This document shows positions 8,858-64,000 of a DNA stretch of 64,000 nt, one piece after another. The translations under genes were made by a program, and so were the position numbers. The number at the start of each line of letters is the position of its first letter. Positions within the stretch are counted from its first letter, which is position 1. The notes under the pieces are model-generated. The model saw only the letters and a program-made list of their open reading frames with translations. It had not been told where the DNA came from and did not search any database. Source of the stretch: an uncultured delta proteobacterium (GTDB taxonomy: Bacteria; Desulfobacterota; Syntrophorhabdia; Syntrophorhabdales; WCHB1-27); contig CAWFRA010000011.1 in the NCBI GenBank assembly GCA_963818095.1, forward strand, positions 60,074 through 124,073. Direction: 5' to 3'.

Positions 8858-8893
8858 GACTTTGTCCGCCCCGTCCTTTCGGACAGCGCCCGC

Positions 8894-23538: not shown

Positions 23539-23610
23539 CGGTCCGCCCCCAGGCCGCTTGGAAGGCCTGAAGGGGTGGGTCCGGCCACATGCAGGAAGGG
23601 TCTCGAAAGA

Positions 23611-24054: not shown

Positions 24055-24104
24055 TGGCCGGTAGATGGACGGTTTTCGGCCGCAAGGGGAGCGGAATACG
24101 AGGC

Positions 24105-25308: not shown

Positions 25309-25320
25309 GGGGCCTCGTCC

Positions 25321-28300: not shown

Positions 28301-28473
28301 CCGGCGGCATGGCCCGCCGGGTAATGGGGACCGCGGTAATGGGCGGTACGGTGGCCGCTTCCGTCATCGCCGTCTTCCTTATCCCCGTCACGTTCTACGT
28401 GGTGGGGCGGATAACGGACCGCTCGAAAAAGCGCAAGCCGAAAGAGGCGGATAAAGGGGGCGGCCATGCGTAA
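25321..28473 (+). CDS. RND efflux permease (HAE1/AcrB family), split by two apparent frameshifts (about 26485 and 27135)
   Basis: FFIRRPI, GLVVDDAIIVVE, AKNAILIVEF, RLRPILMTS. Confidence 0.93.
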
Positions 28474-39800: not shown

Positions 39801-39903
39801 AGGACGGGCAGGTCCGCTGCGTCCGGTCAATGCGGACGGGGCTTCCAGCTTGCTTTTTTACCTTGAAAGCGTTACTTTTGTTTGTAGCACTTGGAAGCAT
39901 ATA

Positions 39904-41140
39904 GTGAAAAATATCCTCGCGATGATCCTGGCGGGCGGCCGGGTGGACGAGCTTGACGTGCTCACATTCCTGCGCCCAAAATCCGTCCTGCCCTTCGGTG
40001 CGCTTTACCGCATAATCGATTTCCCTATGAGCAACCTGATGAACTCAGGTATCGAGAAGGTGGGCATCCTCTCCCAATACAGGCCGTTCCATCTCATCAA
40101 CCATATAGCCAACGGCCATCCGTGGGACATGGTCGGGAGGAACAGGTTTGCCCTTATCCTGCCGCCATTCAAGGGGAAAGATGCATCCGACTGGTACAAG
40201 GGCACGGCCGACGCGGTCTACCAGAACACCGACTTCATCAAGATGTACAACCCGGACCTGGTGCTCATACTCTCGGGCGACCACATATACAAAATGGACT
40301 ACCAGGCGGTAATAGATTTCCATATCGAGAAAAAGGCGGACCTCACCATCGCCTTCACCAGCGTCCCCAGGGAAGGGGCCGACCGCTTCGGCCAGGGCCT
40401 GATAGACGACGAGGAGCCGAGGGGCGGCCGGGTCGTCCGGTACGCCGAAAAACCGCGTAAGGCCCTTTTCGATTGGGCCTCGCTGACGATCTACGTATTC
40501 AACCCCGCCGTCCTGTTCGAGGCCCTCGAAGAAAACGCCAGGAAAGAGTCGCACGAGTTCGGCCGTGACATCATACCCGCCCTGCTCGGCAGGGCCAGGA
40601 TTTACGGCTACAAGCACAGGGGCTACTGGGGTTACACGCGCACGCTGGAAGAGTACTGGCGGACGAGCATGGAGCTTTTGGGCGAGCGGCCGAAGATCGA
40701 CCTCGACGCCTGGCAGCTAAGGACCAACCTCGCGCACAAGGAGATAAGGGACAGGCAGCCTGCCATCCTCGGCCCCTCTGCCGCCATCGAGGACTCTTTG
40801 CTCTACCTCGGATGCGACGTGAGAGGCAAGGTCTTCCGCTCCCTTCTTTTCCCCGGCGTAAAGGTCGAGGAGGGCGCAGTGGTGGAGGACTCGATACTCT
40901 TCTTCGACACGGTGGTCGGCAGGGAGGCCGGGTTTCAAGGACGATTGCGGACATCGGCGTGCGCATAGGACGCGCAGGCGCGGATCGGCGAGCAGGGGCG
41001 GCAGAGCTTTCGGTCATAGGGACGGAAAGCGACGTGCCGGGCGGGGTGACGATGCGGCCAGGGCGTTACCGTCTACCCGAGGGTGGAGGCCGGCCCGGTT
41101 CACGAGAAGCGAGTACAAGAGCGGCGAGATAATAAAATGA
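39904..41140 (+). CDS. glucose-1-phosphate adenylyltransferase family, GlgD-like (frameshifted C-term)
   Basis: [34 protein letters not shown]; atypical LAGGRVDEL loop. Confidence 0.85.
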
Positions 41141-42396
41141 GGAACGTGGTGGCCCTCCTTCTTGCCGGAGGCGTCGGGAGCAGGCTCAACATCCTCGTCC
41201 AGTACAGGGCGAAGCCCGCCGTCCCCTTCGGCGGCATCTATCGTATAATCGATTTCACTTTGAGCAACATAGCGAACAGCGGCCTGACGCGCGTGGCAGT
41301 CCTCACCCAGTACAAGCCCCTGTCCCTCATGGACCACATCGGTGACGGGTCGGCCTGGGACATGGCGGGCAGGACACGGGGCATCAAGCATCCTTCCCCC
41401 CAAAGACGGGAGAGAAGGACTGGGATTGGTACAAGGGCACGGCAGACGCAGTGCGGCAGAACCTGAGCTTCATCTCTTCCGACCGGTATAGCGAGGTGCT
41501 CGTCCTGTCGGGCGACCACGTTTACTGCATGGACTACGGGCCGCTCGTCGCCTTCCACAGGGAGCGTAAGGCGCACGTCACCATAGGGATGATACCAGTG
41601 TCGCCGGAAGAGACGCGCCACTTCGGCACGGCCACGCTGGACAGAACAGGAGGATCGTCGACTGGCAGGAAAAGGCCGCAAAGGCCCGGTCGAACCTCGC
41701 CTCCATGGGCATCTACGTCTTCGACAGGGCAATACCTGACCGCGACCCTGAAGAAGACGAAGGAAGAGGATTTCGGAAAGCAGATCATCCCCAGGGCCTT
41801 AAAAGAGGCCCACGTCTACGGTTATCCTTTCGAGGGCTACTGGAGGGACGTGGGGACGATGCAGGCGTACTGGGATGCGAACATGGACCTCCTGAAGGCC
41901 GATTCCGGGCTAACGCCCGAGGCCTGCGACATACGGACGAACCATGCGGCCGAGGCGCTGCCGTACGACCGCGCGCCTGCGCGGATAAGCGCCTCCGCGC
42001 GCGCGGTCAACTCCGCCGTCTCCCCCGGTTGCGTCGTCTCCGGTGCAGTCGAAGGTTCGGTCCTCTCTCCGGGCGTCGTGATCGAAAAAGGCGCGTTCGT
42101 CAAGGACTCCATCATCATGCACGATACGGTCATCAGGCAGGGGGCGCGCATAGAGCGGTCGGTCACTGGACAAAGAGATCGTTGTCGGTGAAAATGCGGT
42201 TATCGGCAGCGGAGACGCAAAACGACCGAATGCGCGCTTCCCCGACCACCTTTATTCGGGCCTTACGCTGATCGGCAAGAAGGCGTCGATACCGCCCGAC
42301 GCGCGTATCGGGACGAACTGCATCGTCTTCCCCCTGGTCGGCAAGAAGGGCCTGCGCTCCCTCAGCCTCGCGGACGGCGGGACGGTCGAGAAATAA
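41137..42396 (+). CDS. glgC: glucose-1-phosphate adenylyltransferase (several frameshifts)
   Basis: [40 protein letters not shown]. Confidence 0.9.
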
Positions 42397-43883: not shown

Positions 43884-43971
43884 ACATAAGGCGGCCGGAA
43901 AAGGGACCGGGCGCCGGCTGCCGTACGACCATACGATAGATTTGCTATTTCGCCGGATATTCTCTTGCCCG

Positions 43972-45186
43972 CTATGGCCCTGTTGAGTTCCCGCCGGATA
44001 GCGCAGACGCCAGGGCGCGGGCTTTCTTCTTCCTGCTCAGGATAAAAAGGACCAGGGCGAATACATAGACCCCCGCAGTCGTCCCGAACACAAACCATGA
44101 CAACTTATTGACCAGCGCCAGAAGCGCGACCAGCCAGGCAAAATCGCGGTTGACCGTCAATGACGCCAGCCAGTTCGACTCGCTCGACGCCTGCTCTCCA
44201 GGACCGTGGCCCATATAGAGCTGGACCGAGATGGCGCAAAGGCCGAAGCCTGCGAGGAGGAACGCCAGCGCCCAGAGGTAGACCGGGTTGCCGGAACGGT
44301 AATAGAGGCCGAGGGTCATGCCTAGGAATATGGCGACGTGGACTACGTTGTCGCCCACGATATCGAGGTAGTGGCCGAAGTTGCTCTCCTGGAGCTTGAG
44401 CCTCGCAAGCTCGCCGTCGACCCCGTCGAGGATGGTTGATGCAAGGAAAAGCAGCCCGCCTGCAACCTGTGACGGATACGTCCCCTTCAAGAGAAGAAAC
44501 GCTCCCGCCAGCCCGACCGCGATATGGAAGAGCGTGAACATGTTGGGCGTCACGAACGTATCGGCGAGGCGGCTGCTGATGGGGCGCGAAAGGGGCCTGT
44601 GGATTTTCTTTGAGAAAAAGCTGTCCGTCTGTGCGGTCGAGGCGCCGACGGCGGCCACGAGGGACAGGCCGGCATCGGCCGCTTCCCTGGCATTGCGGGG
44701 AATTATGGGCAGGCCGGCTGCGACGGAAACGTGCTCGCACGAGATACCGGCCGGCAGTGACGAGCCGGGCGCCCGAAGTGTGTTCAAGACGTCGGGGACG
44801 CAACGGGCATAGACGAGACAGACCGAAAGGACACCCCCGTCGCCCGCCGCGTAGACGTCGCTCGGCCCGGCTCCTGCAGAAATGAGTTTTTTCAGGGACC
44901 AGGCGTCGATTACGGCCCCGGCCGCCATCACGAGGACCCTTTCGCCTGCATCGGCGCCCGGCCCGCATACAGCCGATAAGTCCGCCTCGCCGTCGACCTT
45001 CACAAAAGCGTCCCGCGGAACGAGGTCGTGAAGGACCCCGGCAAGGCCATCGTCACGCCCGATGACACTGACGTTATCGAAACCGCACCGGCGGGCAACG
45101 AGCGCAAGCCTCCTTGCGGCCGGCGTCCGGAAGACAGGCCGAAGGCCCGCCCCTTCGAAGTCTGCGATAATTGCGCGTCCGGCCAT
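43972..45186 (-). CDS. CDP-alcohol phosphotransferase with an N-terminal soluble domain
   Basis: RPLSRPIS, TPNMFT, DGVDGELAR...SNFGHYLDIVGD signature. Confidence 0.9.
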   Translation of the reverse strand: MAGRAIIADFEGAGLRPVFRTPAARRLALVARRCGFDNVSVIGRDDGLAGVLHDLVPRDAFVKVDGEADLSAVCGPGADAGERVLVMAAGAVIDAWSLKKLISAGAGPSDVYAAGDGGVLSVCLVYARCVPDVLNTLRAPGSSLPAGISCEHVSVAAGLPIIPRNAREAADAGLSLVAAVGASTAQTDSFFSKKIHRPLSRPISSRLADTFVTPNMFTLFHIAVGLAGAFLLLKGTYPSQVAGGLLFLASTILDGVDGELARLKLQESNFGHYLDIVGDNVVHVAIFLGMTLGLYYRSGNPVYLWALAFLLAGFGLCAISVQLYMGHGPGEQASSESNWLASLTVNRDFAWLVALLALVNKLSWFVFGTTAGVYVFALVLFILSRKKKARALASALSGGNSTGP

Positions 45187-45798
45187 CTACCCTTTCTCCA
45201 CGGCCTGCTGCTGGAGCTTCATCCTTTTGAGCAGCCCGTCATACGATTCCTGCTGAATGACTTTACCAAAGCTCTTGCGGTAGTTCTGCACTATGCTCAC
45301 GCCGTCTATCGCAACGTCCCTCACCAGTAGCCGCCCCTTTGCATCGGTAAGAAAGTAATCGACGGGTATCGCCTCGCTTGCCCTCTGCATGCGCGTCTTG
45401 ACCGTCGTCTGGCCATGTCCGTCCTCCTCGCCGGCATATGTGATCTTCTCCTTGCCGACGAAGTCGAGCACCAGCCTCGAGTACGAATCAAGAAAAAGGT
45501 CCTGGAAGATCGACTTGAACTCCGTGCGCTTCGCGGCGCTCATCCCGTTCCAGTGTGAGCCGAGCGCCTGCTGCGCCATATCGTCGAAATTGAAATTGGC
45601 CAAAATGATCTTCTTGATCTCGGCCCTTCTCGTCGGGCGCGCGGCCTGGCCCTGAAGGGCCGGGTCCGTCTGCACCGATATGACCGCTTCGAGCATTTTG
45701 TGGACGACGTCGGTCGCCGCGCCGGGGGCTGCAAGGCCCCTTTCCGGGAGGACCAGCATAACGGCCGCAAAAAGCAGAAGCATGATTTTCACTTTCAC
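45187..45798 (-). CDS. MlaC/Ttg2D/HpnM-family periplasmic lipid-binding protein
   Basis: Signal peptide, FNFDDMAQQALG.HW, VDY, DVAIDGVSIVQNYR..F. Confidence 0.9.
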   Translation of the reverse strand: MKVKIMLLLFAAVMLVLPERGLAAPGAATDVVHKMLEAVISVQTDPALQGQAARPTRRAEIKKIILANFNFDDMAQQALGSHWNGMSAAKRTEFKSIFQDLFLDSYSRLVLDFVGKEKITYAGEEDGHGQTTVKTRMQRASEAIPVDYFLTDAKGRLLVRDVAIDGVSIVQNYRKSFGKVIQQESYDGLLKRMKLQQQAVEKG

Positions 45799-48587
45799 GG
45801 TTCCTCCTTGAAACGGCGGGCGCGCTCGTCCTCGCCCTCTGCCGCATTCTTATCGGGGCTCTTTCTTCCCCTTATGGAGACATTTGCAGACGCATGAAGA
45901 AGGGCGGGCAGGAAAAGCACTGCGGCAGCAAGCACGCAGAGGCTGCCTATGGTCGTAAGCACGCCCAGGCTGCGTATACCCTGGTGGGTCGATATTATCA
46001 GGCTGCAAAAACCGACAGTCGTGGACAACCCGGCCAGGATCACCCCTGTGCCTGTGCTTATCGGCAGGCTGAACCCGGCGCGGTCGCTGCTCTGTAGCCA
46101 GCGCTGCACTACGATGATCCCGTACTCCACGCCCGCGCCCACTACGAGCGGCATGAATATGGTATTGGCAAGGTTCAGGTCGATCCCGAAGAGGTGCATC
46201 AGGCCGAGCGTCCAAAGCGTCCCCAGGATAAGGGGGGCCAGGGCAGCGGCAATCGGCACCGGGCTGCGCAGCGTCACCACAAGGATGAGCACTATGAAGA
46301 TCACAGCGTACACGGCTGCCATGATACAGGCGTTGCGGAAAGCCTTCGTAAAAACGGAAAGCGTTATCGGGTCGCCCGTCGCGTCTTTATCTACCGACCG
46401 GAGGTCGAGCACGAACTTGTCGAGCACATGGGGATCCCAAACGTTCCCCGCAGGGAAGATGCGGAGTATGTAAAGGTTGTCGGCGCCGACGAACCGGTCA
46501 TAGAGCGGCTTCGGCAGGTCCTCCGGCCGCAAGGGCTCCGTCTCGATATTCTCCCATAATAAAGAGAGTTTCTCGTTCAGGTCTTCGATCATCCGCAGCT
46601 CGAATGATTTCAGCCGTACTTCCAAAAGCGGCTTTCTTATAGTTGCGAAGTCTTTCCTGACGGCGTCGATCAGGCGCCTGACCTCCCGCATCTGCCTGCC
46701 GAGCGAGCCCGGGCCGTCGCCCCCGGCCGAGCCCGGATCGAGCATCTTGAAGCGTATTCGCGAAAAAACGGCGTCGAGCCGGTCGATATCGACGGGGCCT
46801 GAAGGCATGGGGATCGACCGGATGTCCCCTAGCACCGGCCGCAGCTCTTTGAGCATAAGAAGCTTACGGTCCTGGTTCGCGGGCATGACGCTCAGGATGC
46901 TGTTTACCTTGGAGACGCTCGGAAGGCGCTCGACCGCTTTAGTCTGCTTTTCGACCTCATCGAGGGAATGCGCAAAGAGTACGCCGTAAATACTCGCGTA
47001 CTTCGACCCCTGGATCAGCTTGTTCTCCCATATGACCGATTCGGCGCTCTTCGATTGCAGGTGAAGCATGTTCAGGTCGAACTTTAGGCCCCACATGGCC
47101 CAGACCGAGAGGACCGAAACGACGAGCGCGAGGCTCAGCAGGAAAAACGTCCGGGGCCGGGTGGTCCGCAAAAGCGGCTTTATCTCCTCGGTCACGGGCT
47201 CCCTGACGAGCCCTTTGCGAAAGCGGTCGACGAGCATTATCATCGCAGGCAGCAGGCCCATGGTGGCCAGCGTCGCAACCAGAAGCCCTATGCTGCAAAT
47301 GAGCCCCAATTCCGAAAGCCCCTTGAAGCTCGTAAGGACAAGGGGGAAAAACGAAAGCGAGGCGCAAATGCCTGCAAGAAAAATGGCGGGGCCCATCTGT
47401 TCCATGGTGGCTGAAAGGGCCTGCTTCGTCGAGACGAAGAAGCGCTGCCGCTCTTCGCTGTAGCGCGCGAACCAATGGACCCCGTAATCGATGCCGAGGC
47501 CGAGGAGCATGGGAGCAAAGGTGACCGAGAGCAAGTTGAGGTGCCCTATAACGATGGTGGTGATGCCGAAAGTGATGCACAGCGCAATGACGAGTACGGC
47601 TACGGCGAGGAGCGGCCTTCTGACGCCGCGCCAGAAAATGATAAGGAGTGCGGCGAGCCCGACTAGCGACAGCCCGGTGGCGAGCCCTATATCCTTCATC
47701 GCAATCTGTTTTTCGTCTTCGTCGAGCGCCTTCTGGCCGGTCACTCCCGCGTTGATGTCGCGATAGTCCGCCCTTAAGGCGGCCACGGTTTCCCGCAGCG
47801 CCTGCAACGGCGGTATGGCGAGACTGCCGACTTTGGACACAGGCTGCACGAAGATAAGCAGGTATTTATTGTCTTCAGTCCAGAAATAGCCTTCTTCGGA
47901 CTCGTCGGTCATGCCCTCCTTGAAAAAAGAGTCCCAGGGCGAGGCAAAGGCAGGCATAGGCGCGCCTTCGATCCGGTTTTTCATCTGGCGGAGCGTGCTG
48001 ATCAGGAAGCGCAGGTCCAGCGGGCTTTTCTTCGCCTTCTTGTCCGTGAGGAAGCCCGTGAACAGCTCCCCCACCATGCCCGAGGCCATCTCGTCGTTAA
48101 TCTCATGGAAGAGGACGTCGAGGCGGGGCGATTTTGAAAGCTGCGCGATAGAGGACGTGTGGTCGCGCAGGTTCTCCCCCAGTTCCGAAAGCTCTTTCTC
48201 GCTGAGGTAGAGGAGCCCCCAGCGCCTCATTGAAGCGGGGTCCACCCGCGCAAACACCTGGCTGTAGTGCTCGCGGTCCGCCTCCAGTTTTTTTGTGAGC
48301 CGGTTGACGAACTCCAGCGTCCTGTGGGTGTCCCGGTTCTCTACTACAACGACGAAGGCCTCCTGGTCGGAGAACCGGTCGGCCATCTTGAGAAGCTGCA
48401 TCATGCGGTCGCTGGGCGAGATGAGGGAGCGCTGGCTCGTCTCGAAACCGAGGTACCCGATTGTAACGACGACGGAGACGGCGGCGAGGGCGACCCAGAA
48501 AACGAGCGTCGCCAGTGGGTGCGCTATCTGGACGGCAACGAGCTTTTGCAGCCATCGCCGTATGTACCTGTGGTTGCCTACCTTCAC
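45795..48587 (-). CDS. MMPL-family RND lipid transporter (HpnN-like)
   Basis: Two TM repeats, GVTG..AL..DE, LGLGIDYGVH, GAGVEYGI, STTVGF.SL. Confidence 0.9.
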   Translation of the reverse strand: MKVGNHRYIRRWLQKLVAVQIAHPLATLVFWVALAAVSVVVTIGYLGFETSQRSLISPSDRMMQLLKMADRFSDQEAFVVVVENRDTHRTLEFVNRLTKKLEADREHYSQVFARVDPASMRRWGLLYLSEKELSELGENLRDHTSSIAQLSKSPRLDVLFHEINDEMASGMVGELFTGFLTDKKAKKSPLDLRFLISTLRQMKNRIEGAPMPAFASPWDSFFKEGMTDESEEGYFWTEDNKYLLIFVQPVSKVGSLAIPPLQALRETVAALRADYRDINAGVTGQKALDEDEKQIAMKDIGLATGLSLVGLAALLIIFWRGVRRPLLAVAVLVIALCITFGITTIVIGHLNLLSVTFAPMLLGLGIDYGVHWFARYSEERQRFFVSTKQALSATMEQMGPAIFLAGICASLSFFPLVLTSFKGLSELGLICSIGLLVATLATMGLLPAMIMLVDRFRKGLVREPVTEEIKPLLRTTRPRTFFLLSLALVVSVLSVWAMWGLKFDLNMLHLQSKSAESVIWENKLIQGSKYASIYGVLFAHSLDEVEKQTKAVERLPSVSKVNSILSVMPANQDRKLLMLKELRPVLGDIRSIPMPSGPVDIDRLDAVFSRIRFKMLDPGSAGGDGPGSLGRQMREVRRLIDAVRKDFATIRKPLLEVRLKSFELRMIEDLNEKLSLLWENIETEPLRPEDLPKPLYDRFVGADNLYILRIFPAGNVWDPHVLDKFVLDLRSVDKDATGDPITLSVFTKAFRNACIMAAVYAVIFIVLILVVTLRSPVPIAAALAPLILGTLWTLGLMHLFGIDLNLANTIFMPLVVGAGVEYGIIVVQRWLQSSDRAGFSLPISTGTGVILAGLSTTVGFCSLIISTHQGIRSLGVLTTIGSLCVLAAAVLFLPALLHASANVSIRGRKSPDKNAAEGEDERARRFKEEP

Positions 48588-49987
48588 CAGCTCCTTACTC
48601 CCATCGCGTACTCAAGCTGCGCCATGGACAGGTTGTAATTGAAGAGGGCCTCCAGGTACCTGCCCCTGTTCTGGCCGTACCGCTCGATGCCGCGCAGCAG
48701 GTCGTCGGCCGTCCCCGTTCCCATATCGAAGCTGGTCAGGGCTGCCACGATCCATTTCCTCGACGCTCCGGCTGCCTTATCATACGCCTCCACGGCCACT
48801 CTCCATTGCTTCACGTCCTGGTAAGCCTTCATTACCTGGATGGGGATATTGAGCTGAGCGTTGGTTTTGGTGTGGTTAAGGCGCTCATATTCCGCCCTCT
48901 CCTTCTCAACCCGGGCCTTCAGTATACCAAAATCGAAGTGCCAGTTCACCCCCGTCACCACGCCGCCATACGCGTGATTGAAATCGTCGGTGATATAGGG
49001 GTTGTGGAGCGTCTCACGCCCCGGCGCAACGGCCACGGACGCCACGGCGGCCGCAAAAAAGGACGGCATCCTGTCCGCCTGGGCTGCTTCGACGAGCGAT
49101 CTCTGGGCGGCGAGCCCCTTCTCCAACTGCTTGAACTCGGGCCGCTCTGCCAGCGCCTTGCTCACATACGAATCAGGCCCACCGAGCTCCTCCAGCCTGA
49201 ATTCGAGTGTCTTTTCCTTAGGCTCGAAGTCCTTGCCCGAAGAAAGCCCCAGGAGGCGCTTCAGCGCATAATACGATATATTGGCCCCTTTCTCGGCCTC
49301 CGCCCTTCCCCTGATTACATCCGCCCGGTAGGCATCGACCCTGTAAAGCTCGCTCTCCACAACGTTCGCCGAGCCGAGCTTGAGAAGGCGCTCCATGTGC
49401 GTCCTCGCCTCGTCGAAAAAGCCGCCCGCTTCTTTCGCGGCCTCTATCCCCGTCTTCGAAAGGACGAGGGCGTAATAAAGCTCCCTCACGCGTAAGGCGA
49501 TCTCGTTGCCCGTCTGCACCTCCTGGGCCTGGCGCGCGGCAACGCCCTGCTCGGCCGCATCGCGCCTGTTCGATATCTTGCCGAACGTATAGATGGGCTG
49601 CGTCATCATAAGGTTGAGCTTGCCGAAAACACCGATGGACCAGTAGCTCGATGTCGGGTCGATAATCCGGTTGCCTGCGACCTCCGGCCGTTTGGCGCCA
49701 TTTACCGGCCCCAACAAGCCTACGGTATCGATCTGCGGGAGAAAGCCCGCCCGCGCCTGGGCAAGGTCGCTCTTCGCCGAGGCGGACGCGCTCCGCTTTT
49801 CCGCCATCTCGGGGCTGAAGGCTACCGCCATGCGGATCATCTCCGGCAAGCCGAGCACCATCCTCTCCCCGCCAGTCTGTGCGCGCACGGCGCCCGCAAA
49901 CAAAACGAGAAGTGCGATACAGCAGGCGGCCGCACCCGGAAGCCGCCACATTCGGGTCACGAAAAACGCTTTTATGTGCGTCTCCAT
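48584..49987 (-). CDS. TolC family outer membrane protein
   Basis: Signal peptide, QPIYTFGK, ALAERPE, coiled-coil repeats. Confidence 0.88.
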   Translation of the reverse strand: METHIKAFFVTRMWRLPGAAACCIALLVLFAGAVRAQTGGERMVLGLPEMIRMAVAFSPEMAEKRSASASAKSDLAQARAGFLPQIDTVGLLGPVNGAKRPEVAGNRIIDPTSSYWSIGVFGKLNLMMTQPIYTFGKISNRRDAAEQGVAARQAQEVQTGNEIALRVRELYYALVLSKTGIEAAKEAGGFFDEARTHMERLLKLGSANVVESELYRVDAYRADVIRGRAEAEKGANISYYALKRLLGLSSGKDFEPKEKTLEFRLEELGGPDSYVSKALAERPEFKQLEKGLAAQRSLVEAAQADRMPSFFAAAVASVAVAPGRETLHNPYITDDFNHAYGGVVTGVNWHFDFGILKARVEKERAEYERLNHTKTNAQLNIPIQVMKAYQDVKQWRVAVEAYDKAAGASRKWIVAALTSFDMGTGTADDLLRGIERYGQNRGRYLEALFNYNLSMAQLEYAMGVRSW

Positions 49988-51051
49988 GTGACCTCCTTGT
50001 TATCTTCTCCTTTGCTGCTGATAACCCCGGCTTCGCCGTTGCCCGCCAGGGTCCCATTCCTCTTTGCCGTCCCGCCGACAAGGACCACGTAGACGGCCAG
50101 GCCGGCCCCCGCCCAGACAAGCTGCTCCAGACGCAGCGTTATGCCATAAGTAAGCCCCGCAGCCGAATTAAAGCCGAGGACGTGAAGACGATCACGCCGC
50201 GTCGTCTCCTGCACGCCGAAATCGACCGGGAGCGCAAAGGTGACCAGGTTAAACCAGATGCCCAGGCAGACGATTGCCGTAGCGAGCGGCATCGACGCCC
50301 CTCCGGTGACGAAAGCGAGGAAATAGTAAGCGGGCAGGATGCTCCACGTCAGGGCTGCAACGTGCCACATAACCGATAAAGGCATGTCGTAAGGGCGCAG
50401 CCGGTAGTACGCCCGCAGCCTCTGATCGACGTCGGTCGCATGAAGGGCGGCGGTCCGCAGGCCGGCGCCGCCGATACGATGGGCGACCGCCCAACGCACG
50501 ACTGCCCCCAGCTTGCCATACTTCTGGACGACAAAGAAGCCTATAATGCCGCAGGTGAGCAAGGCCGTGCCTGCGATCAGGGCGGCCCAAAGGCCGCCGG
50601 ACAGGGCGACCCGGCCGGAGATTATGATTCCGCTTCCCACAACGAAGACGATCTGGCCGAGCGCCTGGGAGAGCTTATCGATTATGACAGCGGAGGCCGC
50701 GTCCGCGCCCGTCCGGTTAGTCGACAGGAGGACGCCCTTTGCGACTTCGCCGCCGAAACCTGCGGTGGGGGTGAGGTGATTGATCGACGAGCCGGCGAGG
50801 CGGATCGCAAAAACCTTGGCAAAAGAGAGCGACCTGTGCACGCCCAACAGGCAGCATCGCCAGCCAATGGTATGGAAGACCTCGGTAACGCCGTCGAGGA
50901 GCACAAGGAGCAGAAAGCCCCACCCGAGCATCACCATCCTCTGCCATATCGCAAGCGGCCCTATTTTATAGATAAGGACGGCGAGCAGGATTACGCCGGA
51001 TGCTATGGCTATCAGATGGAATTTCTTCAACGTTTGGCTCCCTTGAAGCAA
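49972..51051 (-). CDS. lysylphosphatidylglycerol-synthase TM / flippase-like (UPF0104, HpnL-like) membrane protein
   Basis: Multi-TM, GWR, INHLTPT.GFGGEV.K, IIDK, FGVQE. Confidence 0.85.
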   Translation of the reverse strand: MLQGSQTLKKFHLIAIASGVILLAVLIYKIGPLAIWQRMVMLGWGFLLLVLLDGVTEVFHTIGWRCCLLGVHRSLSFAKVFAIRLAGSSINHLTPTAGFGGEVAKGVLLSTNRTGADAASAVIIDKLSQALGQIVFVVGSGIIISGRVALSGGLWAALIAGTALLTCGIIGFFVVQKYGKLGAVVRWAVAHRIGGAGLRTAALHATDVDQRLRAYYRLRPYDMPLSVMWHVAALTWSILPAYYFLAFVTGGASMPLATAIVCLGIWFNLVTFALPVDFGVQETTRRDRLHVLGFNSAAGLTYGITLRLEQLVWAGAGLAVYVVLVGGTAKRNGTLAGNGEAGVISSKGEDNKEVTWRRT

Positions 51052-51084
51052 ATCGCGGCACAGCGCCCGCTGCGCCCTCGTGTT

Positions 51085-51789
51085 TTAGACCGCGCCGTGT
51101 CCCCGCAGATAATCTTCCGCCGCCGCAACATCCTCCGGCCTGTCTACGTCGATCGTCTTTGCGACGGAGACGGCGCACAGCCTGAAACCCGCCTCCGGCA
51201 GGAAACAGAGGAATTGCCGCAGCGCGCTTAAGCGGCGCTCCCTCGCCGCTTCCACAAAATCGAAGACCGACGGCTCCAGCCTGTAAAAACCCGCAGTCAC
51301 GGTGCCCGCCGGGCCGTCCGTATGGCCGATCCTGCGTACCACGTGGTCGCGGCCGGCATCCACACGCAGGGGCTTCTCGTCATCGCTGAAGCGGGTTACA
51401 GCCAGCACGCCTTGCGCGGAGCGAAGGGCCGCCGCGCCGGCGAGGAACCGTTTTAGCGTAAGCGTCCTGAAAACCGTGTCCACCGTGAAAAGGACGAACG
51501 GCCCGTCCCGGAGGAGCGGGGCAAGCGCAATCAGGCTCTCCAGGGAGTTGTCCGTCGTCTTCTTTATCAGCTCGAAATCGAGCGGCCATTTCTCCGAGAG
51601 CAGGTACGCCTCGGTCTGAGGGCTCCGCTCGTTGATGATGCAGCACATGGAGGTGATTCCGGCCTTGTGGGCCACGCGTATGAGCCTGCCGATCATCGGC
51701 TCCCCGCAGATGGGCACCATCGGCTTCGGGACGGAGAACCCCGGGGCGAGGCGCTCCCCGAACCCTGCCGAGATGATGCCCGCCCTCAT
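51085..51789 (-). CDS. nucleotidyltransferase (candidate inositol-1-phosphate cytidylyltransferase)
   Basis: ISAGFGERL, PKPM, TVD, DDEKPL, IDVDRPED. Confidence 0.85.
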   Translation of the reverse strand: MRAGIISAGFGERLAPGFSVPKPMVPICGEPMIGRLIRVAHKAGITSMCCIINERSPQTEAYLLSEKWPLDFELIKKTTDNSLESLIALAPLLRDGPFVLFTVDTVFRTLTLKRFLAGAAALRSAQGVLAVTRFSDDEKPLRVDAGRDHVVRRIGHTDGPAGTVTAGFYRLEPSVFDFVEAARERRLSALRQFLCFLPEAGFRLCAVSVAKTIDVDRPEDVAAAEDYLRGHGAV

Positions 51790-52499
51790 AACGCCAGGGC
51801 CTCCAACTCGGAGAGCCTCGTTATGATCGCGTCTACGGGCGGCGCATTTTCCGGCATGCGGGGGGCCGGCCCCTTGAGCCAGATCGTCTTCATCCCGATC
51901 TCTGCGGCCGGTATCATGTCGCGCTCGTATGAATCCCCGATGAAGGCCGCCTGTTCGGGCCTTAAACCGAGCTTCTCAAGGGCGAGCATGAAGATGCGGG
52001 GGTCCGGCTTGCTGACTCCCACACGGCCGGAATCGATGACTACGTCGAAAGCGCCCGACAGCCCCGCCTCATCGAGGATAACCTCCAGATTGCCGAAAAA
52101 ATTGGAAACTATGCCGGTGCGGAAACGGCCCCTCACCGTCCGGAAAAGACCCGCCCGCAGGGACAGGGTATGCTCGGCACGCCCGCAGAACAAGTCCGCA
52201 AGCTGCCTGTGCATGGCCGCATCGTCAAAGCCGAGCGCCCTAAATTGATGGCCGACGTGCCGGTCGAGCAGGGTGCGCAGGCCCGCAGCCGGTAGCCCTG
52301 CGTCCGCGTGGCACGCGGAATCGGCCACGTAAAAGGCGCGCTTGATATCGTCTCTTTGGAACTGGAGCCCTTCGTGCTCGTAGAGCTCGAAAAACCTGTC
52401 AAGCCAATGTTCTCCGTCGGAATCGATAGTCCCCCCGAAATCAAAAAGGAGGGCCTCGCATCCACGGAACCTTTTGCAGTCCATGATGCCCCTCGTCAT
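51786..52499 (-). CDS. HAD-family hydrolase (phosphatase)
   Basis: FDFGGTIDS, VSNF, KPDPRIF, IGDSYERD. Confidence 0.9.
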   Translation of the reverse strand: MTRGIMDCKRFRGCEALLFDFGGTIDSDGEHWLDRFFELYEHEGLQFQRDDIKRAFYVADSACHADAGLPAAGLRTLLDRHVGHQFRALGFDDAAMHRQLADLFCGRAEHTLSLRAGLFRTVRGRFRTGIVSNFFGNLEVILDEAGLSGAFDVVIDSGRVGVSKPDPRIFMLALEKLGLRPEQAAFIGDSYERDMIPAAEIGMKTIWLKGPAPRMPENAPPVDAIITRLSELEALAL

Positions 52500-52509
52500 A
52501 AATACGTTT

Positions 52510-53685
52510 TCAGTGGATACCCCTAAATCCCTCGCGCGCGCCCACCTCCGGCAGGTGAAGGCGGAGGGACCTGCCCGGCTGCTCTTCCTCGCACGAACCC
52601 TGTATGAACTCCTCGACTGCGCGGTACGCCTCGTCGTCCGGCAATTGCACGGGCGGGTGCTTCATGAAGAAGGCCGCGGGACCCTGCAGGACACCCGATA
52701 TTCCACGGTCGAGGGCCAGCTTGCAGCACCGGATGGCGTCGATGACTATGCCCGCGGAATTCGGCGAATCTTCGACGGACAGGCGCAATTCAATATTGAA
52801 CGGGACGCCGCCGAACATCTTTCCTTCCACCCGGATGAAACAGACTTTATTGTCTTTCTGCCATGGGACGTAGTCGCTAGGACCTACGTGGATGTTCATA
52901 TCGTCCAGGCGCTCGGCCGCGATAGACTGGACGGCCTCGGTCTTGGACGTCTTTTTCGAGGCGAGCCTTTCGCGGTTGAGCATGTTCAGGAAATCGGTGT
53001 TCCCGCCCGTGTTGATCTGGTAGGTGCGCTCGAGCTTGACGCCCCTCTTCCTGAAGAGGTCGACCAGCATCCGGTGGACTATCGTAGCGCCGAGCTGCGA
53101 TTTTACATCGTCCCCGATCAGGGGAAGCCCCTTGGCTTCGAAGCGGGCCGCCCATGCGGGGTCGCTCGCGATGAAAACCGGGATGTTGTTGACGAGCGCG
53201 CAGCCTGCGTCGAGGGCGCATTCCACGTAGAACCGGGCCGCTTGCTCGGACCCGACGGGCAGGTAGTTGAGCAATATCTCTACCCCTGCGTCCCGCAAGG
53301 CCGCAGTCACTTCTTTCTTATCCGGCTCTTTTTCGTCCGAAACCAGGAAGGTGCACGCTTCGGGATAGCCGCCCATGTGGCCCGAGCAGCCGTCGAGGAC
53401 AGCCCCCATCCTGACGCGCGTGCCCATCGGCGTTACGTCCTTGCAGAAGGCGGCCGTGCAGTTCGGCTTCTCGAAGATCGCCTCGGAGACGTCCTTGCCC
53501 ACCTTGCGCCTGTCGATGTCGAAGGCGGCGACTATCTGTATATCGCCCGGCGCGTAGCCGCATATCTCCCGGTGCATCAGGCCGATATCTTCCGCTTCTT
53601 CCGTTTTCCTGTAATAATTGATTCCCTGCACGAGTGAGCTGCAGCAGTTTCCGACGCCGACTACACCGATTCTGATCGGATGCAT
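52510..53685 (-). CDS. ino1: myo-inositol-1-phosphate synthase
   Basis: GVGNCCSSLVQG, NYLPVGS, GDDVKSQLGAT, GGNTDFLNM, SKKTSKT, DSPNSAG. Confidence 0.96.
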   Translation of the reverse strand: MHPIRIGVVGVGNCCSSLVQGINYYRKTEEAEDIGLMHREICGYAPGDIQIVAAFDIDRRKVGKDVSEAIFEKPNCTAAFCKDVTPMGTRVRMGAVLDGCSGHMGGYPEACTFLVSDEKEPDKKEVTAALRDAGVEILLNYLPVGSEQAARFYVECALDAGCALVNNIPVFIASDPAWAARFEAKGLPLIGDDVKSQLGATIVHRMLVDLFRKRGVKLERTYQINTGGNTDFLNMLNRERLASKKTSKTEAVQSIAAERLDDMNIHVGPSDYVPWQKDNKVCFIRVEGKMFGGVPFNIELRLSVEDSPNSAGIVIDAIRCCKLALDRGISGVLQGPAAFFMKHPPVQLPDDEAYRAVEEFIQGSCEEEQPGRSLRLHLPEVGAREGFRGIH

Positions 53686-53692
53686 TCCTACT

Positions 53693-53721
53693 AAGATATG
53701 GGAATCGGGCTGAATTGTCAA
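53693..53721 (-). promoter_or_regulatory. sigma70 promoter of the ino1 operon, probably giving a leaderless or near-leaderless mRNA
   Basis: TTGACA-N17-TATCTT, then 7 nt to the ATG at 53685. Confidence 0.55.
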
Positions 53722-53836: not shown

Positions 53837-54340
53837 CTACCCTTCCGCCTTGATCTCTATTTTTTTCGTCTGCTCCATAGCCCGGGGCGACTTCGGCAGC
53901 ACTATGCTGAGCACCCCGTTCTTGAACGTTGCCTCCACCTTGTCCGGCTGGACTTCTGCCGGCAGGGAAACATAACGCCTGAACGTGCCGTAGCTGCGCT
54001 CGCTGTAACGCACGTCCCGGCCCTCCTCTTTGCGCTCCCATTTCTTCTCGCCGCTGATAGTTATCGAGTTGTCGCCCGACAGCGTTATGTCGATGTCCTC
54101 AGGGCTCATGCCCGGCACTTCTGCGTTTATGCGGACCTGTTTCTCCTCGTCGATCACGTCCACGCTGGGCATGAACTCCTGCGTCCGCCACTCGAAGGGC
54201 CGCAGCCGCAGCATGGGCCATTCCTGGAAGAGATCGTCCATCCACCGGTCCATCATATCCCGCATTGCGGATAAGGACGGCGCGCCCTGGCCTCGCCTGA
54301 CCGGTACGTTCCCCTCTTTCTTAGCCACCTGTTCAGCCAT
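53837..54340 (-). CDS. Hsp20 small heat-shock protein
   Basis: PSVDV, AEVPGM, ERSYGTFRR, ATFKNGVL. Confidence 0.94.
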   Translation of the reverse strand: MAEQVAKKEGNVPVRRGQGAPSLSAMRDMMDRWMDDLFQEWPMLRLRPFEWRTQEFMPSVDVIDEEKQVRINAEVPGMSPEDIDITLSGDNSITISGEKKWERKEEGRDVRYSERSYGTFRRYVSLPAEVQPDKVEATFKNGVLSIVLPKSPRAMEQTKKIEIKAEG

Positions 54341-54449
54341 GAAGCACCTCCATCTCACTGATTGATAGACTAACGTAATGCAGGTGCAAAACCGTTTCAA
54401 TATGCGGCCGCGACACCCTTGCAAACAAAGGATAAAACGCAGAATATTG

Positions 54450-63036: not shown

Positions 63037-64000
<964 letters not shown>

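Follow-up and report, generated by a model that had tools for sequence, protein, structure and literature searches.

An operon of an uncultured delta proteobacterium that most likely couples head-group synthesis to lipid export in a hopanoid-associated setting

Why would genes for an inositol phosphate head group share an operon with genes for lipid transport across the envelope, and which lipid would such an operon serve? The question is raised by eight genes within a window of 64,000 nucleotides (the whole stretch of DNA that was analyzed) from an uncultured delta proteobacterium of the Desulfobacterota. A sequence-only reading had proposed that the operon makes an inositol-headed lipid via CDP-inositol, flips it, and delivers it to the outer membrane or surface. 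Its observations are confirmed here, and its interpretation is partly supported: the operon most likely combines a module for the head group with one for lipid export, and the combination is associated with hopanoids.

Layout of the operon

All eight open reading frames are present on the minus strand, co-oriented from 53685 to 43972, in the 5' to 3' order myo-inositol-3-phosphate synthase (MIPS), HAD phosphatase, nucleotidyltransferase (NTP), HpnL-like, TolC-like, HpnN-like, MlaC/HpnM-like, and CDP-alcohol phosphotransferase (CDP-AP). The junctions measure +10 nt (MIPS/HAD), -4 (HAD/NTP), +33 (NTP/HpnL), -16 (HpnL/TolC), -4 (TolC/HpnN), -4 (HpnN/MlaC), and 0 (MlaC/CDP-AP), so that three of them are 4-nt overlaps. 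These coordinates and lengths bear out the tight packing and the several 4-nt overlaps described from the sequence alone, and Pfam and NCBIfam searches reproduced every one of the family calls. The proposal that the eight genes form one unit gains further weight from four other genomes (L012-L015), which share the arrangement HAD-NTP-(one extra ORF)-HpnL-TolC-HpnN-MlaC-CDP-AP and whose CDP-AP identities are 48-68% (tblastn); the arrangement is therefore conserved and not due to chance.

A sigma70-like promoter match (53693..53721, minus strand; TTGACA-17 nt-TATCTT, 10 of 12) stands where the sequence-only reading had placed one. The site is real, but its frequency is no higher than chance, since the region holds 5 such sites versus 3.0 +/- 1.8 in shuffles; moreover, the -10 element ends 8 nt ahead of the MIPS ATG, so that the transcript would have to be leaderless. 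The TTG at 53721 that was listed as the MIPS start belongs to the TTGACA of the promoter-like match. More likely, translation begins with the ATG at 53685 (MHPIRIGVVG), given that the MIPS model aligns from residue 16 of the long ORF onward. Downstream, a weak terminator-like hairpin (43892..43909, minus strand) lies 63 nt past the CDP-AP stop codon and is no evidence by itself, with 12 such hairpins in the region versus 12.5 +/- 3.7 expected. Immediately upstream of the operon, on the same strand, is an Hsp20 gene.

Putative head-group enzymes

The first gene (52510..53685, minus strand) encodes a MIPS (PF01658, Inos-1-P_synth, 124 bits; cut-off 27) that matches TIGR03450, a mycothiol-type equivalog model, over its full length (positions 1-355 of 355) at 438 bits, under the cut-off of 638. 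Sharing 63% identity with the genome's other copy (contig C15) and 75% with the in-cluster MIPS of L015, it is a second, cluster-dedicated copy. Linkage of MIPS to the cluster is variable: it lies within 10 kb of CDP-AP at 6 of 80 loci, and among the four syntenic relatives it is kept only in L015, with L012 matching the first 35 residues only. Nor is MIPS enriched among CDP-AP carriers in a 400-genome sample of the phylum (22 of 46 carriers versus 187 of 400 overall). The HAD-IA phosphatase (51786..52499, minus strand; Pfam Hydrolase, 68 bits) finds its best NCBIfam matches in REG-2-like, YjjG, and pyrimidine 5'-nucleotidase models, all under cut-off, and a homologue stands beside CDP-AP at 66 of 80 loci. 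It may serve as a product phosphatase, a CMP phosphatase, or an inositol phosphate phosphatase.

The third gene (51085..51789, minus strand) encodes a sugar/alcohol-phosphate nucleotidyltransferase (PF00483, NTP_transferase, 35 bits, and PF12804) that carries a glycine-rich loop (SAGFGERL) and has a homologue beside CDP-AP at 67 of 80 loci. On sequence grounds it is a candidate CTP:inositol-phosphate cytidylyltransferase. Its similarity is not specifically to IPCT: the best solved relative is MurU (6.2e-8), followed by 7whr (7.9e-7), whereas IPCT (2xme) is a weaker match (1.2e-5), and NCBIfam matches to the archaeal GlmU N-domain (55.8 bits) and to IPCT/DIPPS (53.5 bits) both fall far under cut-off. 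The proposed CDP-alcohol route to an inositol phosphate head group stays plausible, with a MIPS in the operon and a complete CDP-AP signature. Loci of relatives hold additional genes, namely a class-III aminotransferase (51 of 80), a GFO/IDH/MocA oxidoreductase (27 of 80), an unassigned ORF of ~270 aa (61 of 80), and a B12-radical-SAM gene (61 of 80); one locus, for example, has the order HAD-NTP-unk270-aminotransferase-GFO-HpnL-TolC-HpnN. All four are missing from this operon, and because most relatives carry these extra genes, inositol may not be the head group of the family.

The last gene (43972..45186, minus strand) encodes a two-domain CDP-AP (PF01066, CDP-OH_P_transf, 47.8 bits; cut-off 22), in which an N-terminal cytidylyltransferase-like pseudo-domain (about residues 1-160) is followed by a six-helix CDP-AP domain. 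The class I signature DxxDGxxAR...GxxxDxxxD on TM2-TM3 is present in full as D254xxD257G258xxA261R262x8G271xxxD275xxxD279, invariant across 35 aligned sequences, which suggests that the enzyme is catalytically intact. An AF2 model (pLDDT 89.8) shows a juxtamembrane helix and six long helices over residues 190-400, consistent with the six-transmembrane-helix core, and its top Foldseek matches are 4mnd and AF2299 (TM-scores of 0.56-0.65 to these and PIPS). The N-domain adopts a nucleotidyltransferase fold (Foldseek matches to KdsB, IspD, MurU, and MobA at ~2e-3) and has a conserved start, A.I.A.D..GL.PVFG.PA.RRL. It lacks the GxGxR-type glycine-rich loop that we take to be the signature of an active cytidylyltransferase, and is thus not recognizable as a catalytically competent domain; it is probably a scaffold only.

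The best solved relatives by sequence are likewise AF2299 (5.7e-30) and IPCT-DIPPS (3e-23) of Archaeoglobus fulgidus (PDB 4o6m, 4mnd), which also join a cytosolic cytidylyltransferase(-like) domain to a six-helix CDP-AP and whose juxtamembrane motif aligns with D-S-F-[LF]-[AS]-R..R.[IL]SR in the operon protein. The bifunctional IPCT/DIPPS model NF041135, by comparison, is matched at 73.6 bits (cut-off 580) and over the CDP-AP half only (residues 184-348). Unlike in the archaeal proteins, the active transferase is here a separate gene, and the genomic context is one of lipid transport and hopanoid synthesis. The products of the archaeal enzymes are soluble phosphodiesters, and their host is a hyperthermophile; in the available part of PMC4634129, AF2299 and AfDIPPS are described as not acting on lipids, and six-helix CDP-APs as taking soluble acceptors.

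Hopanoid association and candidate products

The sequence-only reading had stressed that no shc, hpnH, or hpnG is present in the window, and had listed a hopanoid as one of four acceptors. The absence is true of the ORFs scanned and is misleading, because the same genome carries shc and hpn genes on contig C8; the genome search for squalene-hopene cyclase that it had called for returned shc at 803 bits, clustered with hpnK, hpnA, hpnI, and hpnG-, hpnH-, and hpnJ-like genes. The emphasis shifts accordingly, as CDP-AP and the HpnN-like gene both track shc. The C8 cluster has no hpnN, and the only other HpnN-like copy in the genome (contig C28) is read in three frames; the gene in the window is the genome's best HpnN candidate.

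Across genomes, the CDP-AP subfamily and the HpnN-like transporter are near-exclusive to carriers of shc. The cyclase gene was found in 49 of 50 genomes carrying the CDP-AP subfamily (45 over the family cut-off), the single negative being a 2.6-Mb MAG. One carrier in culture is Desulfoferrobacter suflitae DRH4 (L018). In the phylum sample, shc is present in 37 of 46 CDP-AP carriers (E <= 1e-30) versus 32 of 354 non-carriers, and in 35 of 37 carriers at E <= 1.1e-43; the carriers span 17 families, and the counts overstate independence in being drawn from related genomes. HpnN-like genes occur in 66 of the 400 genomes, 58 of these shc-positive, and in 29 of the 32 shc-positive genomes without CDP-AP. 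None of the 14 other sampled genomes of the window's own order has shc, CDP-AP, or an HpnN-like gene, and 13 of them have MIPS.

In relatives, the cluster is interleaved with genuine hpnI, hpnJ, hpnK, and shc. One locus (L024) encodes an HpnJ of 752.8 bits (cut-off 577.6), another (L023), which also contains shc, an HpnK of 300 bits (cut-off 232.6) and an HpnI of 331 bits (cut-off 310), and a third (L016) an HpnI of 333 bits. At L036, shc lies about 0.9 kb upstream of CDP-AP; the distance is <1 kb in two genomes (G100 and G123) and 8.5 kb in a third (G330). The HpnN-like gene thus occurs in shc genomes and also beside hpn genes, adjoining hpnI/J/K or shc at five loci (L016, L023, L097, L099, and L107). 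Linkage of synthesis to transport genes, as claimed from the sequence alone, holds in 6 families, with HpnN within 10 kb of CDP-AP in 10 of the 32 sampled genomes that have both (HpnN identity 27%-51%).

We tentatively favor, at somewhat less than an even chance, an hpn-type operon that equips a membrane lipid, preferably a hopanepolyol, with a phospho-inositol head group and exports it by an adaptor-less HpnN/MlaC-like/TolC-like route. The dedicated MIPS would supply inositol-3-phosphate, the nucleotidyltransferase would activate it with CTP to CDP-inositol, and the AF2299/DIPPS-like CDP-AP would move phospho-inositol to a free hydroxyl of the lipid; the HAD phosphatase would strip a terminal phosphate from the product, or clear CMP or inositol phosphate. 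The HpnL-like protein would then flip the lipid and the HpnN-like RND protein pull it out of the inner membrane, after which the MlaC-like carrier would cross the periplasm with it and dock on the periplasmic tip of the TolC-like factor, which would stand in place of the proteobacterial MlaA/HpnS with no membrane-fusion adaptor. As putative acceptor, a bacteriohopanepolyol, e.g., bacteriohopanetetrol, is favored over a diacyl or ether glycerol accompanying hopanoids. Against this view, conservation of HAD beside CDP-AP is no less compatible with a soluble acceptor that is phosphorylated, the nearest characterized CDP-APs are non-lipid enzymes, and the HpnN, HpnM, and HpnL homologues all score under their NCBIfam cut-offs. 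We know of no phospho-inositol hopanoid, and a literature search turned up none. The near confinement of the key enzyme to hopanoid-making bacteria hints at an undescribed hopanoid-linked phospholipid.

A different lipid made from CDP-inositol, either an inositol phosphoceramide or a diacyl or alkyl-ether glycerolipid resembling PI, with the transport trio as its dedicated exporter and hopanoids merely correlated, is in our estimate unlikely. A DIPPS-like CDP-AP of Rhodothermus marinus reportedly transfers phospho-inositol from CDP-inositol to dialkylether glycerol, a lipid alcohol; it is said to be fused to an active IPCT and to have no linked exporter. In favor of this reading, the synthesis genes adjoin the transport genes in 6 families, and the gene content (MIPS, NTP-transferase, CDP-AP, and HAD, with a lysyl-PG-synthase-like UPF0104 gene nearby) matches the alternative inositol-lipid cluster of the Bacteroides vulgatus type (Heaver et al., 2022; PMC9246714). 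In the available part of that study the cluster is assigned a Kennedy-like logic via CDP-inositol, with functions unconfirmed, leading to inositol phosphoryl-ceramide or PI; its Bacteroidetes hosts make inositol phosphoryl-dihydroceramide and no hopanoids, and the cluster as described there has no RND, MlaC, or TolC genes (PMC9246714). The operon CDP-AP differs from that cluster in its extra cytidylyltransferase-like domain and in tracking shc. A glycerolipid synthase would need no shc, yet nearly all carriers (49 of 50, and 35 of the 37 strong matches) possess it, as do 58 of the 66 genomes with HpnN-like genes. Furthermore, HpnL-TolC-HpnN-MlaC is also found without CDP-AP in shc-positive genomes, next to hpnI/J/K (L092, L094, and L097), so the exporter is not specific to the CDP-AP product and would be of hopanoid type rather than for an inositol lipid alone. 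The sequence-only reading's own ground for refutation, a trio that tracks with shc, is half borne out by these loci.

We consider it improbable that the product is a soluble inositol phosphodiester (DIP or glycero-phospho-inositol type), formed from a CDP-alcohol and inositol phosphate with subsequent dephosphorylation, and that a separate general hopanoid exporter is co-transcribed as part of an envelope-stress regulon. The closest solved or curated relatives of the CDP-AP (AF2299, AfIPCT-DIPPS, and the DIPPS half of NF041135) suit such a pathway, as do the aligned juxtamembrane motif, the presence of all four DIP-type pathway enzymes, and the adjoining Hsp20 gene; the source cited for AF2299/DIPPS-type enzymes, as far as available, adds that they handle no lipids and need a later phosphatase (PMC4634129). 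Co-occurrence with shc in 17 families and location in hpn clusters are unexpected for a solute pathway, in which, moreover, CDP-AP would be separated from its partner genes by four genes for membrane transport whose stop and start codons overlap. The relatives are MAGs of bog, palsa, and pasture samples, whereas DIP is to our knowledge known only from (hyper)thermophiles.

Reversed polarity, with the hopanoid as CDP-linked donor and inositol-3-phosphate as acceptor, is hardly to be expected: a phosphorylase-type HpnG would yield ribosylhopane-1-phosphate ('phosphoribohopane'), the nucleotidyltransferase would convert it to CDP-ribosylhopane, a PIPS/AIPS-like CDP-AP would transfer it to inositol-3-phosphate, and HAD would take off the terminal phosphate, a step that also occurs when bacteria make phosphatidylinositol. 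The scheme gives every conserved gene (NTP, CDP-AP, HAD, and MIPS) a role, agrees with the strict association with shc, and suits a nucleotidyltransferase nearer to sugar-1-phosphate enzymes (MurU, 6e-8) than to IPCT, yet it is purely conjectural, the donor-side juxtamembrane motif is like that of soluble-donor AF2299 and DIPPS and not of PIP synthases, half of the CDP-AP carriers are without MIPS, and we know of no case in which a soluble nucleotidyltransferase takes a sugar phosphate bound to the membrane as its substrate. Phosphoribohopane is given as a theoretical HpnG product, never observed, in the available part of PMC13459092, and besides the soluble acceptors of six-helix CDP-APs, PMC4634129 (in its available part) reports an isoprenoid CDP-lipid as the donor of an archaeal homologue.

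Transport genes and a predicted periplasmic contact

For the favored hopanoid-linked operon, export would begin with the HpnL-like protein (49972..51051, minus strand), an LPG_synthase_TM membrane protein (UPF0104, flippase-like; PF03706, 53.2 bits, cut-off 33.4) that matches TIGR03476 at 88 bits over positions 2-304 of 318, under the cut-off of 195.65. The HpnN-like MMPL/RND (HAE3-type) inner-membrane lipid transporter (45795..48587, minus strand; MMPL, 145 bits) aligns with TIGR03480 over positions 3-860 of 862 at 521.3 bits (cut-off 751.85), and reaches 342.2 bits on NF052374 (cut-off 1100). Its third best model, matched over the full length at 301 bits and far under the cut-off of 1400, is BstA (NF045600) of the Methylococcus BstABC sterol transporters, which, like the operon as proposed here, pair an RND protein with carriers that take a polycyclic triterpenoid through the periplasm. 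Their partner proteins BstB and BstC are members of other families.

The MlaC/HpnM-like periplasmic lipid carrier (45187..45798, minus strand; PF05494, MlaC, 130 bits, cut-off 26) scores 67.8 bits on the HpnM model TIGR03481 (cut-off 160.1), where it is topped by the housekeeping MlaC at 98.7 bits. The latter is encoded in a canonical mlaFEDCA operon on contig C24, so that the gene studied here, overlapping hpnN by 4 nt, is a second mlaC-like gene away from the mla operon. The MlaC fold is common to the operon and the Mla system, but the operon is without the MlaFEDB ATPase complex and without MlaA. An HpnN-type RND gene beside a second MlaC-like gene (HpnM), with HpnL nearby and a canonical Mla operon also kept in an shc-positive diderm, recalls the HpnN-HpnM(-HpnS) route as described in the available part of bioRxiv 10.1101/2025.07.29.667474; a function of HpnN in hopanoid transport is cited in the available part of PMC12583986. 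For proteobacteria, that source proposes HpnS, which resembles MlaA, or the lipocalin HpnT as the outer-membrane partner, and the terms TolC, inositol, and CDP-alcohol have 0 occurrences in the available text (bioRxiv 10.1101/2025.07.29.667474). In contrast, this operon and at least 14 other loci (L013-L016, L023, L024, L092, L094, L096, L097, and L104-L107) have a TolC-like gene adjoining HpnN, whose product is a candidate outer-membrane partner.

The TolC-like factor (48584..49987, minus strand; PF02321, OEP, two stretches, 137.5 bits) belongs to the TolC family by its two OEP repeats, its full length (TIGR01844, positions 4-399 of 414, 80.9 bits, under the cut-off of 225), and an N-terminal hydrophobic leader ending AVRA-Q that is read as a signal peptide. 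An RND gene beside an OEP-family gene is also the arrangement of AcrAB-TolC-type tripartite pumps, but the operon has no membrane-fusion adaptor gene, Pfam and NCBIfam finding no HlyD/MFP domain in the eight ORFs. Elsewhere in the window, an ordinary pump (MarR-HlyD-AcrB-OEP, 23575-29896) has its adaptor at 24054-25445.

Adaptors normally dock at the tip of the outer-membrane factor, and complex prediction supports docking of the MlaC-like protein on the TolC-like protein, at what we read as its periplasmic tip. The pair, modeled with TolC as a monomer instead of a trimer, scored 0.75 versus 0.50 for the best of 3 controls. In a benchmark, 116 of 157 solved complexes attained this mark, versus 2 of 215 mismatched pairs; these counts hold only roughly here, because our own alignments were used. 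The runs share at least 91% of contacts, with a partner pLDDT of at least 84, and place the MlaC-like protein on TolC-like residues 179-208, 259-260, and 406-448. The predicted interface includes invariant alignment columns on both sides, L201, D421, and G423 of the TolC-like protein and L101, S105, D165, I169, Y173, and F177 of the MlaC-like protein.

Operon architecture and genomic setting

The eight genes occupy the minus strand from 53685 to 43972 and encode, in order, MIPS (myo-inositol-phosphate synthase; PF01658, 124 bits; TIGR03450, 438 bits with the whole model length aligned), a HAD-IA phosphatase, a 234-residue nucleotidyltransferase (51085–51789), an LPG_synthase_TM/HpnL-like membrane protein, an OEP (TolC-like) protein with two repeats, a 930-residue MMPL/RND protein whose best model is HpnN (521 bits, model positions 3–860 of 862), an MlaC-fold protein, and a 404-residue CDP-alcohol phosphotransferase (CDP-AP; 43972–45186). 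Pfam and NCBIfam reproduced every family named in the sequence-only reading and its eight co-oriented ORFs were confirmed, with junctions of +10, -4, +33, -16, -4, -4, and 0 nt in operon order. For MIPS, the ATG at 53685 is a likelier start codon than the TTG listed at 53721. Sigma70-like hexamers are present upstream of MIPS (53721–53693), and the region holds five such sites versus 3.0 ± 1.8 in shuffled sequence, which is no excess. Because neither the promoter scan nor the terminator scan exceeds shuffled expectation, these matches are not counted as evidence for a single transcript. An Hsp20 small heat-shock gene (53837–54424) precedes MIPS on the same strand, with 151 nt between its end and the MIPS start, making read-through into the operon or common stress regulation possible.

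The remaining genes of the window are housekeeping and transport genes unrelated to the operon. Several lie in pieces or are truncated (10964–12476, minus; 39850–42191, plus; 61819–62481, minus; 63037–63543, minus), FAD_oxidored and a GlmU-like NTP-transferase/hexapeptide gene are each found in two ORFs, and ExoVII-large and ThiC give partial matches only. The AcrB match of an efflux operon at 23575–29896 covers only profile positions 597–1020 (ORF 26905–28473), and the gene looks split by a frameshift. These broken genes suggest frameshift noise of the assembly; all eight operon genes are intact.

The sequence-only reading had stressed that the window lacks the squalene-hopene cyclase gene (shc), an emphasis that does not hold at the level of the genome (3.57 Mb in 38 contigs, of which C11 holds the window; rated 67% complete), which carries shc (803 bits) on contig C8 in a cluster with hpnK, hpnA, hpnI, and hpnG-, hpnH-, and hpnJ-like genes. 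A DUF116 protein is encoded between hpnA and the hpnH-like fragment of this cluster (L009:12756–13568), and an Omp85-family gene follows hpnI. No hpnN was found in the C8 cluster; a second HpnN-like gene (C28:284256–286909, covered by loci L003–L005 and L010), read in three frames, is 51–62% identical to the window copy and adjoins a polyprenyl-diphosphate synthase gene. The operon's MlaC-like gene is not the housekeeping MlaC, as contig C24 has a complete mlaFEDCA operon that includes an MlaC. The genome also has a second MIPS, on contig C15, with 74% identity to the MIPS of three same-order genomes. The operon MIPS shares 63–64% identity with the C15 copy and those three sequences, and 75% with the in-cluster MIPS of locus L015, a pattern that marks it as a dedicated paralogue.

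Association with hopanoid producers

Co-occurrence of CDP-AP with shc was profiled in an even sample of 400 genomes from the phylum of the window, 46 of which carry CDP-AP at E ≤ 1e-30 and 69 of which carry shc. Carriers are shc-positive in 37 of 46 cases (35/37 at E ≤ 1.1e-43), versus 32 of 354 non-carriers, and the shc-positive carriers span 17 families; kinship makes the sampled genomes non-independent, and therefore no P-value is claimed. Completeness is rated at 85% and 93% for the two shc-negative genomes at the stricter threshold. Seen from the other side, the CDP-AP/NTP/HAD module is found in 37/69 shc-positive genomes of the sample, and it occurs throughout the Binataceae. MIPS is not enriched in carriers (22/46 versus 187/400 overall). 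HpnN-like genes occur in 66 of the 400 genomes, 58 of them shc-positive, and in 29 of the 32 shc-positive non-carriers; where HpnN and CDP-AP are both present, they lie within 10 kb of each other in 10 of 32 genomes, from six families. The sample holds 14 further genomes from the order to which the window belongs; shc, CDP-AP, and HpnN-like genes were found in none of them and MIPS in 13.

A scan of one genome per species recovered 516 CDP-AP relatives, and the best 80 loci were searched with tblastn, the queries being all eight proteins of the operon plus a set of hopanoid and accessory proteins. Of 50 carrier genomes tested from these loci, 49 have shc, 45 of them over the cut-off (48/49 without the unpublished genome G021), and the single exception is a 2.6-Mb MAG. 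HAD (66/80) and nucleotidyltransferase (67/80) genes are the most frequent neighbors, followed by a ~270-aa ORF and a B12-radical-SAM gene (61/80 each), a class-III aminotransferase (51/80), and a GFO/IDH/MocA oxidoreductase (27/80); each of these six counts is one lower, of 79, without the G021 locus (L032). HpnL-like (17/80), MlaC-like (12/80), HpnN-like (10/80), TolC-like (9/80), and MIPS (6/80) genes are less frequent, as are hpnI (4/80), shc (2/80), and hpnK (2/80).

The window's gene order is repeated in four loci (L012–L015), of which only L015 retains MIPS. The match in L012, the closest syntenic relative, covers only MIPS residues 1–35 (2170–2275, 62%), lies about 180 nt upstream of HAD, and looks like the remnant of a lost MIPS; no MIPS was found within 1.6 kb upstream in L014, and the L013 contig stops short of that position. 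In Syntrophobacteraceae-type loci, a group that includes the cultured carrier Desulfoferrobacter suflitae DRH4 (L018), CDP-AP lies near HpnL, TolC, HpnN, and MlaC together with HAD and the nucleotidyltransferase, rearranged and mixed with genuine hopanoid genes. Examples are HpnJ in L024 (752.8 bits, cut-off 577.6), HpnK (300 bits, cut-off 232.6), HpnI (331 bits, cut-off 310), and shc (at 5637) in L023, HpnI in L016 (333 bits), and shc about 0.9 kb upstream of CDP-AP in L036. The operon is near-exclusive to hopanoid producers and placed among hpn genes. Locus L023 also has a gene for a DUF3187 protein (8866–9927, 176 bits), located between shc and CDP-AP. Two CDP-AP genes share one neighborhood in L016 (450–1814 and 9809–11203) and in genomes G133 (C8:118115–124051) and G157 (C18); in G157 and G123 a second, weaker copy adjoins MIPS.

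Some 55 Binataceae loci hold only CDP-AP, a divergent HAD-nucleotidyltransferase-270aa-aminotransferase set, and the radical-SAM gene, which lies directly downstream of CDP-AP (L072:10815–12146 and the same position in the others). The radical-SAM gene is a true HpnJ, at ~70% identity, in L018–L021 and L024; the Binataceae gene is only 23–25% identical to HpnJ, scores 84 bits against the cut-off of 577.6, and has BchE among its weak matches, along with a 'lipid biosynthesis B12/radical SAM' model. The ~270-aa ORF, aminotransferase, and oxidoreductase stand beside CDP-AP, HAD, and the nucleotidyltransferase in L018 (15784–19097), L020, L028, L029, L063, L072, L090, L091, L105, and most Binataceae loci, and are absent from the window operon. 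The ~270-aa ORF has no Pfam or NCBIfam family, a RimK/ATP-grasp hint being sub-threshold (E 0.0036), and its one homologue in the window's genome (C17, 44%) is in an unrelated neighborhood; orthologues of the aminotransferase and oxidoreductase were not found in that 67% complete genome (best 30% and 22%). The set might convert a cyclitol to an amino-cyclitol, and because these accessory genes vary among relatives, the head group of the family is suggested not to be always inositol.

The transport module and its TolC-like partner

The sequence-only reading envisaged an exporter dedicated to an inositol lipid. Searches of 18 HpnN-centred loci argue otherwise, since HpnL-TolC-HpnN-MlaC also stands in shc-positive genomes without CDP-AP (L092 and L094), indicating that the exporter was not devised for an inositol lipid. 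The same four genes occur in L104, where CDP-AP is on another contig, and TolC-HpnN-MlaC occurs in L096, L097 (also with hpnJ, hpnK, and hpnI), and L107 (with hpnI and hpnK). Six loci hold HpnN-MlaC alone, L099 has a canonical HpnN next to shc and hpnA, and L105 reads HAD-NTP-270aa-aminotransferase-GFO-HpnL-TolC-HpnN. By these gene orders, the transport genes form a hopanoid-type module that is repeatedly found joined to head-group genes.

No membrane-fusion adaptor was found among the eight operon genes, and this, with the conserved HpnN/MlaC partnership, led us to reject the TolC-like gene as part of an ordinary efflux pump; the window does encode such a pump, adaptor included (MarR-HlyD-AcrB-OEP, 23575–29896, plus strand). 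A predicted complex of the MlaC-like and TolC-like proteins, from input alignments of 15 and 21 orthologues and with TolC folded as a monomer, not a trimer, scored 0.75, versus 0.50 for the best of three controls. The score mark used is reached by 116/157 solved complexes and 2/215 mismatched pairs, rates that apply only roughly here because the alignments were our own. Runs agreed in at least 91% of contacts, with partner pLDDT of at least 84, and the predicted contacts (TolC 179–208, 259–260, and 406–448; MlaC 101–112, 140–144, and 164–201) include columns invariant in both alignments. The model supports, but does not show, binding between the two proteins, and the TolC surface would correspond to the periplasmic helical tip, the usual docking place of adaptors.

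HpnN-HpnM-HpnS or HpnT have been proposed as proteobacterial hopanoid transport routes in a preprint that leaves HpnL unexplained (10.1101/2025.07.29.667474), and hpnL and hpnM are also listed as unresolved in PMC12583986. The terms TolC, inositol, and CDP-alcohol do not occur in the available text of the preprint. By title or passage, our literature search returned no link of a CDP-alcohol phosphotransferase or TolC-like protein to hopanoids, although the preprint's supplementary neighborhood tables might list such domains.

CDP-AP and the proposed product

The full catalytic signature of CDP-AP is invariant in an alignment of 35 of the 124 homologues found, those named being Syntrophorhabdales, Syntrophales, and Syntrophobacteraceae MAGs. 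A conserved domain makes up its N-terminal ~160 residues and lacks the glycine-rich loop motif that the operon's separate nucleotidyltransferase carries. A profile search of solved structures ranked AF2299 first (5.7e-30) and AfIPCT-DIPPS second (3e-23), followed by PIP synthases, and the best Foldseek matches of an AlphaFold model (pLDDT 89.8) were 4mnd and AF2299, with the N-domain resembling cytidylyltransferases at about 2e-3. The profile and fold matches, together with the missing loop, identify CDP-AP as an AF2299-like 'pseudo-cytidylyltransferase plus six-helix CDP-AP'. The inositol-phosphate-binding arginines of RsPIPS are R153 and R191 (PMC4634129); profile alignments of CDP-AP with PIPS chains end at query position 295–308, short of TM4–6.

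According to Clarke et al. (2015; PMC4634129), AF2299 and DIPPS process no lipid, six-helix CDP-APs use soluble acceptors, and a lipid, if used, enters as the CDP-linked donor. These rules argue against the simple reading in which CDP-inositol meets a lipid alcohol; the ether-lipid enzyme of Rhodothermus is said to be an exception.

The operon and its families stand as first described, and its conservation is shown; the interpretation, which had listed a hopanoid as one of several acceptors, is partly supported and is here re-centred on hopanoids by the shc co-occurrence and hpn neighbors. We hypothesize that, by way of a CDP-alcohol, a membrane lipid would receive a phospho-inositol head group originating from the dedicated MIPS, and that export of the product would fall to HpnL, HpnN, the MlaC-like carrier, and the TolC-like factor. 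A hopanepolyol is the tentatively favored acceptor because it is the sole direct explanation of the shc dependence; the nearest relatives of CDP-AP use soluble substrates. A phosphorylated acceptor or intermediate would be in keeping with the conserved HAD phosphatase, whose solved relatives (PH0459-type and HDHD3) are uninformative. A reversed scheme, in which a CDP-ribosylhopane donor meets an inositol phosphate acceptor and the product is then dephosphorylated, assigns a role to every gene but lacks direct support, and we consider it improbable. A phosphorylase-type HpnG should give phosphoribohopane, which has never been observed (PMC13459092), and inositol, in the accessible passages of that source, concerns archaeal head groups only.

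With either polarity of CDP-AP, we tentatively propose a phospho-inositol-bearing hopanoid ('hopanoid phospholipid'), which could reach the outer membrane without an adaptor, by means of an MlaC-fold carrier shuttling between the TolC-like channel's periplasmic tip and the RND protein of HpnN type. If so, CDP-AP, the nucleotidyltransferase, and HAD would by extension be a previously unrecognised hpn gene set whose head group varies, being inositol here and perhaps an aminocyclitol in loci that have the aminotransferase and oxidoreductase. The locus is akin to two known kinds, the 'alternative' inositol-lipid cluster and hpn clusters. Heaver et al. (2022; PMC9246714) report the same MIPS/NTP/CDP-AP/HAD set, with an LPG-synthase-like gene nearby, from Bacteroides vulgatus and Prevotella and treat it as an alternative, unconfirmed route to inositol lipids. 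A phospho-inositol hopanoid class was not found in the literature passages searched, and there is a realistic chance that both the lipid class and the lipid-export architecture are new.

Hopanoids, which are major lipids of membranes, give rise to the most abundant molecular fossils. With hpnL and hpnM among the hpn genes lacking an assigned function and the outer-membrane end of the hopanoid transport route missing, the locus offers new testable hopanoid-associated genes, which are CDP-AP with its nucleotidyltransferase and phosphatase and, as outer-membrane partner of HpnN/HpnM, a TolC-like gene. It would give the first hint to a role of the 'alternative' inositol-lipid set outside Bacteroidetes, and would add an RND-MlaC-OMF architecture to known inter-membrane lipid transport in diderm bacteria. 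Standard bacteriohopanepolyol analyses may have missed the product if it is a phosphorylated hopanoid. This would affect how hopanoid records of soil and peat are read, because the record titles of the carriers (Binataceae, Syntrophobacteraceae, and Syntrophorhabdales-like MAGs) point to samples of that type. The cultured carrier D. suflitae DRH4 makes the question directly testable, and for an example product, bacteriohopanetetrol-phospho-inositol, the calculated [M-H]- is 787.4767.
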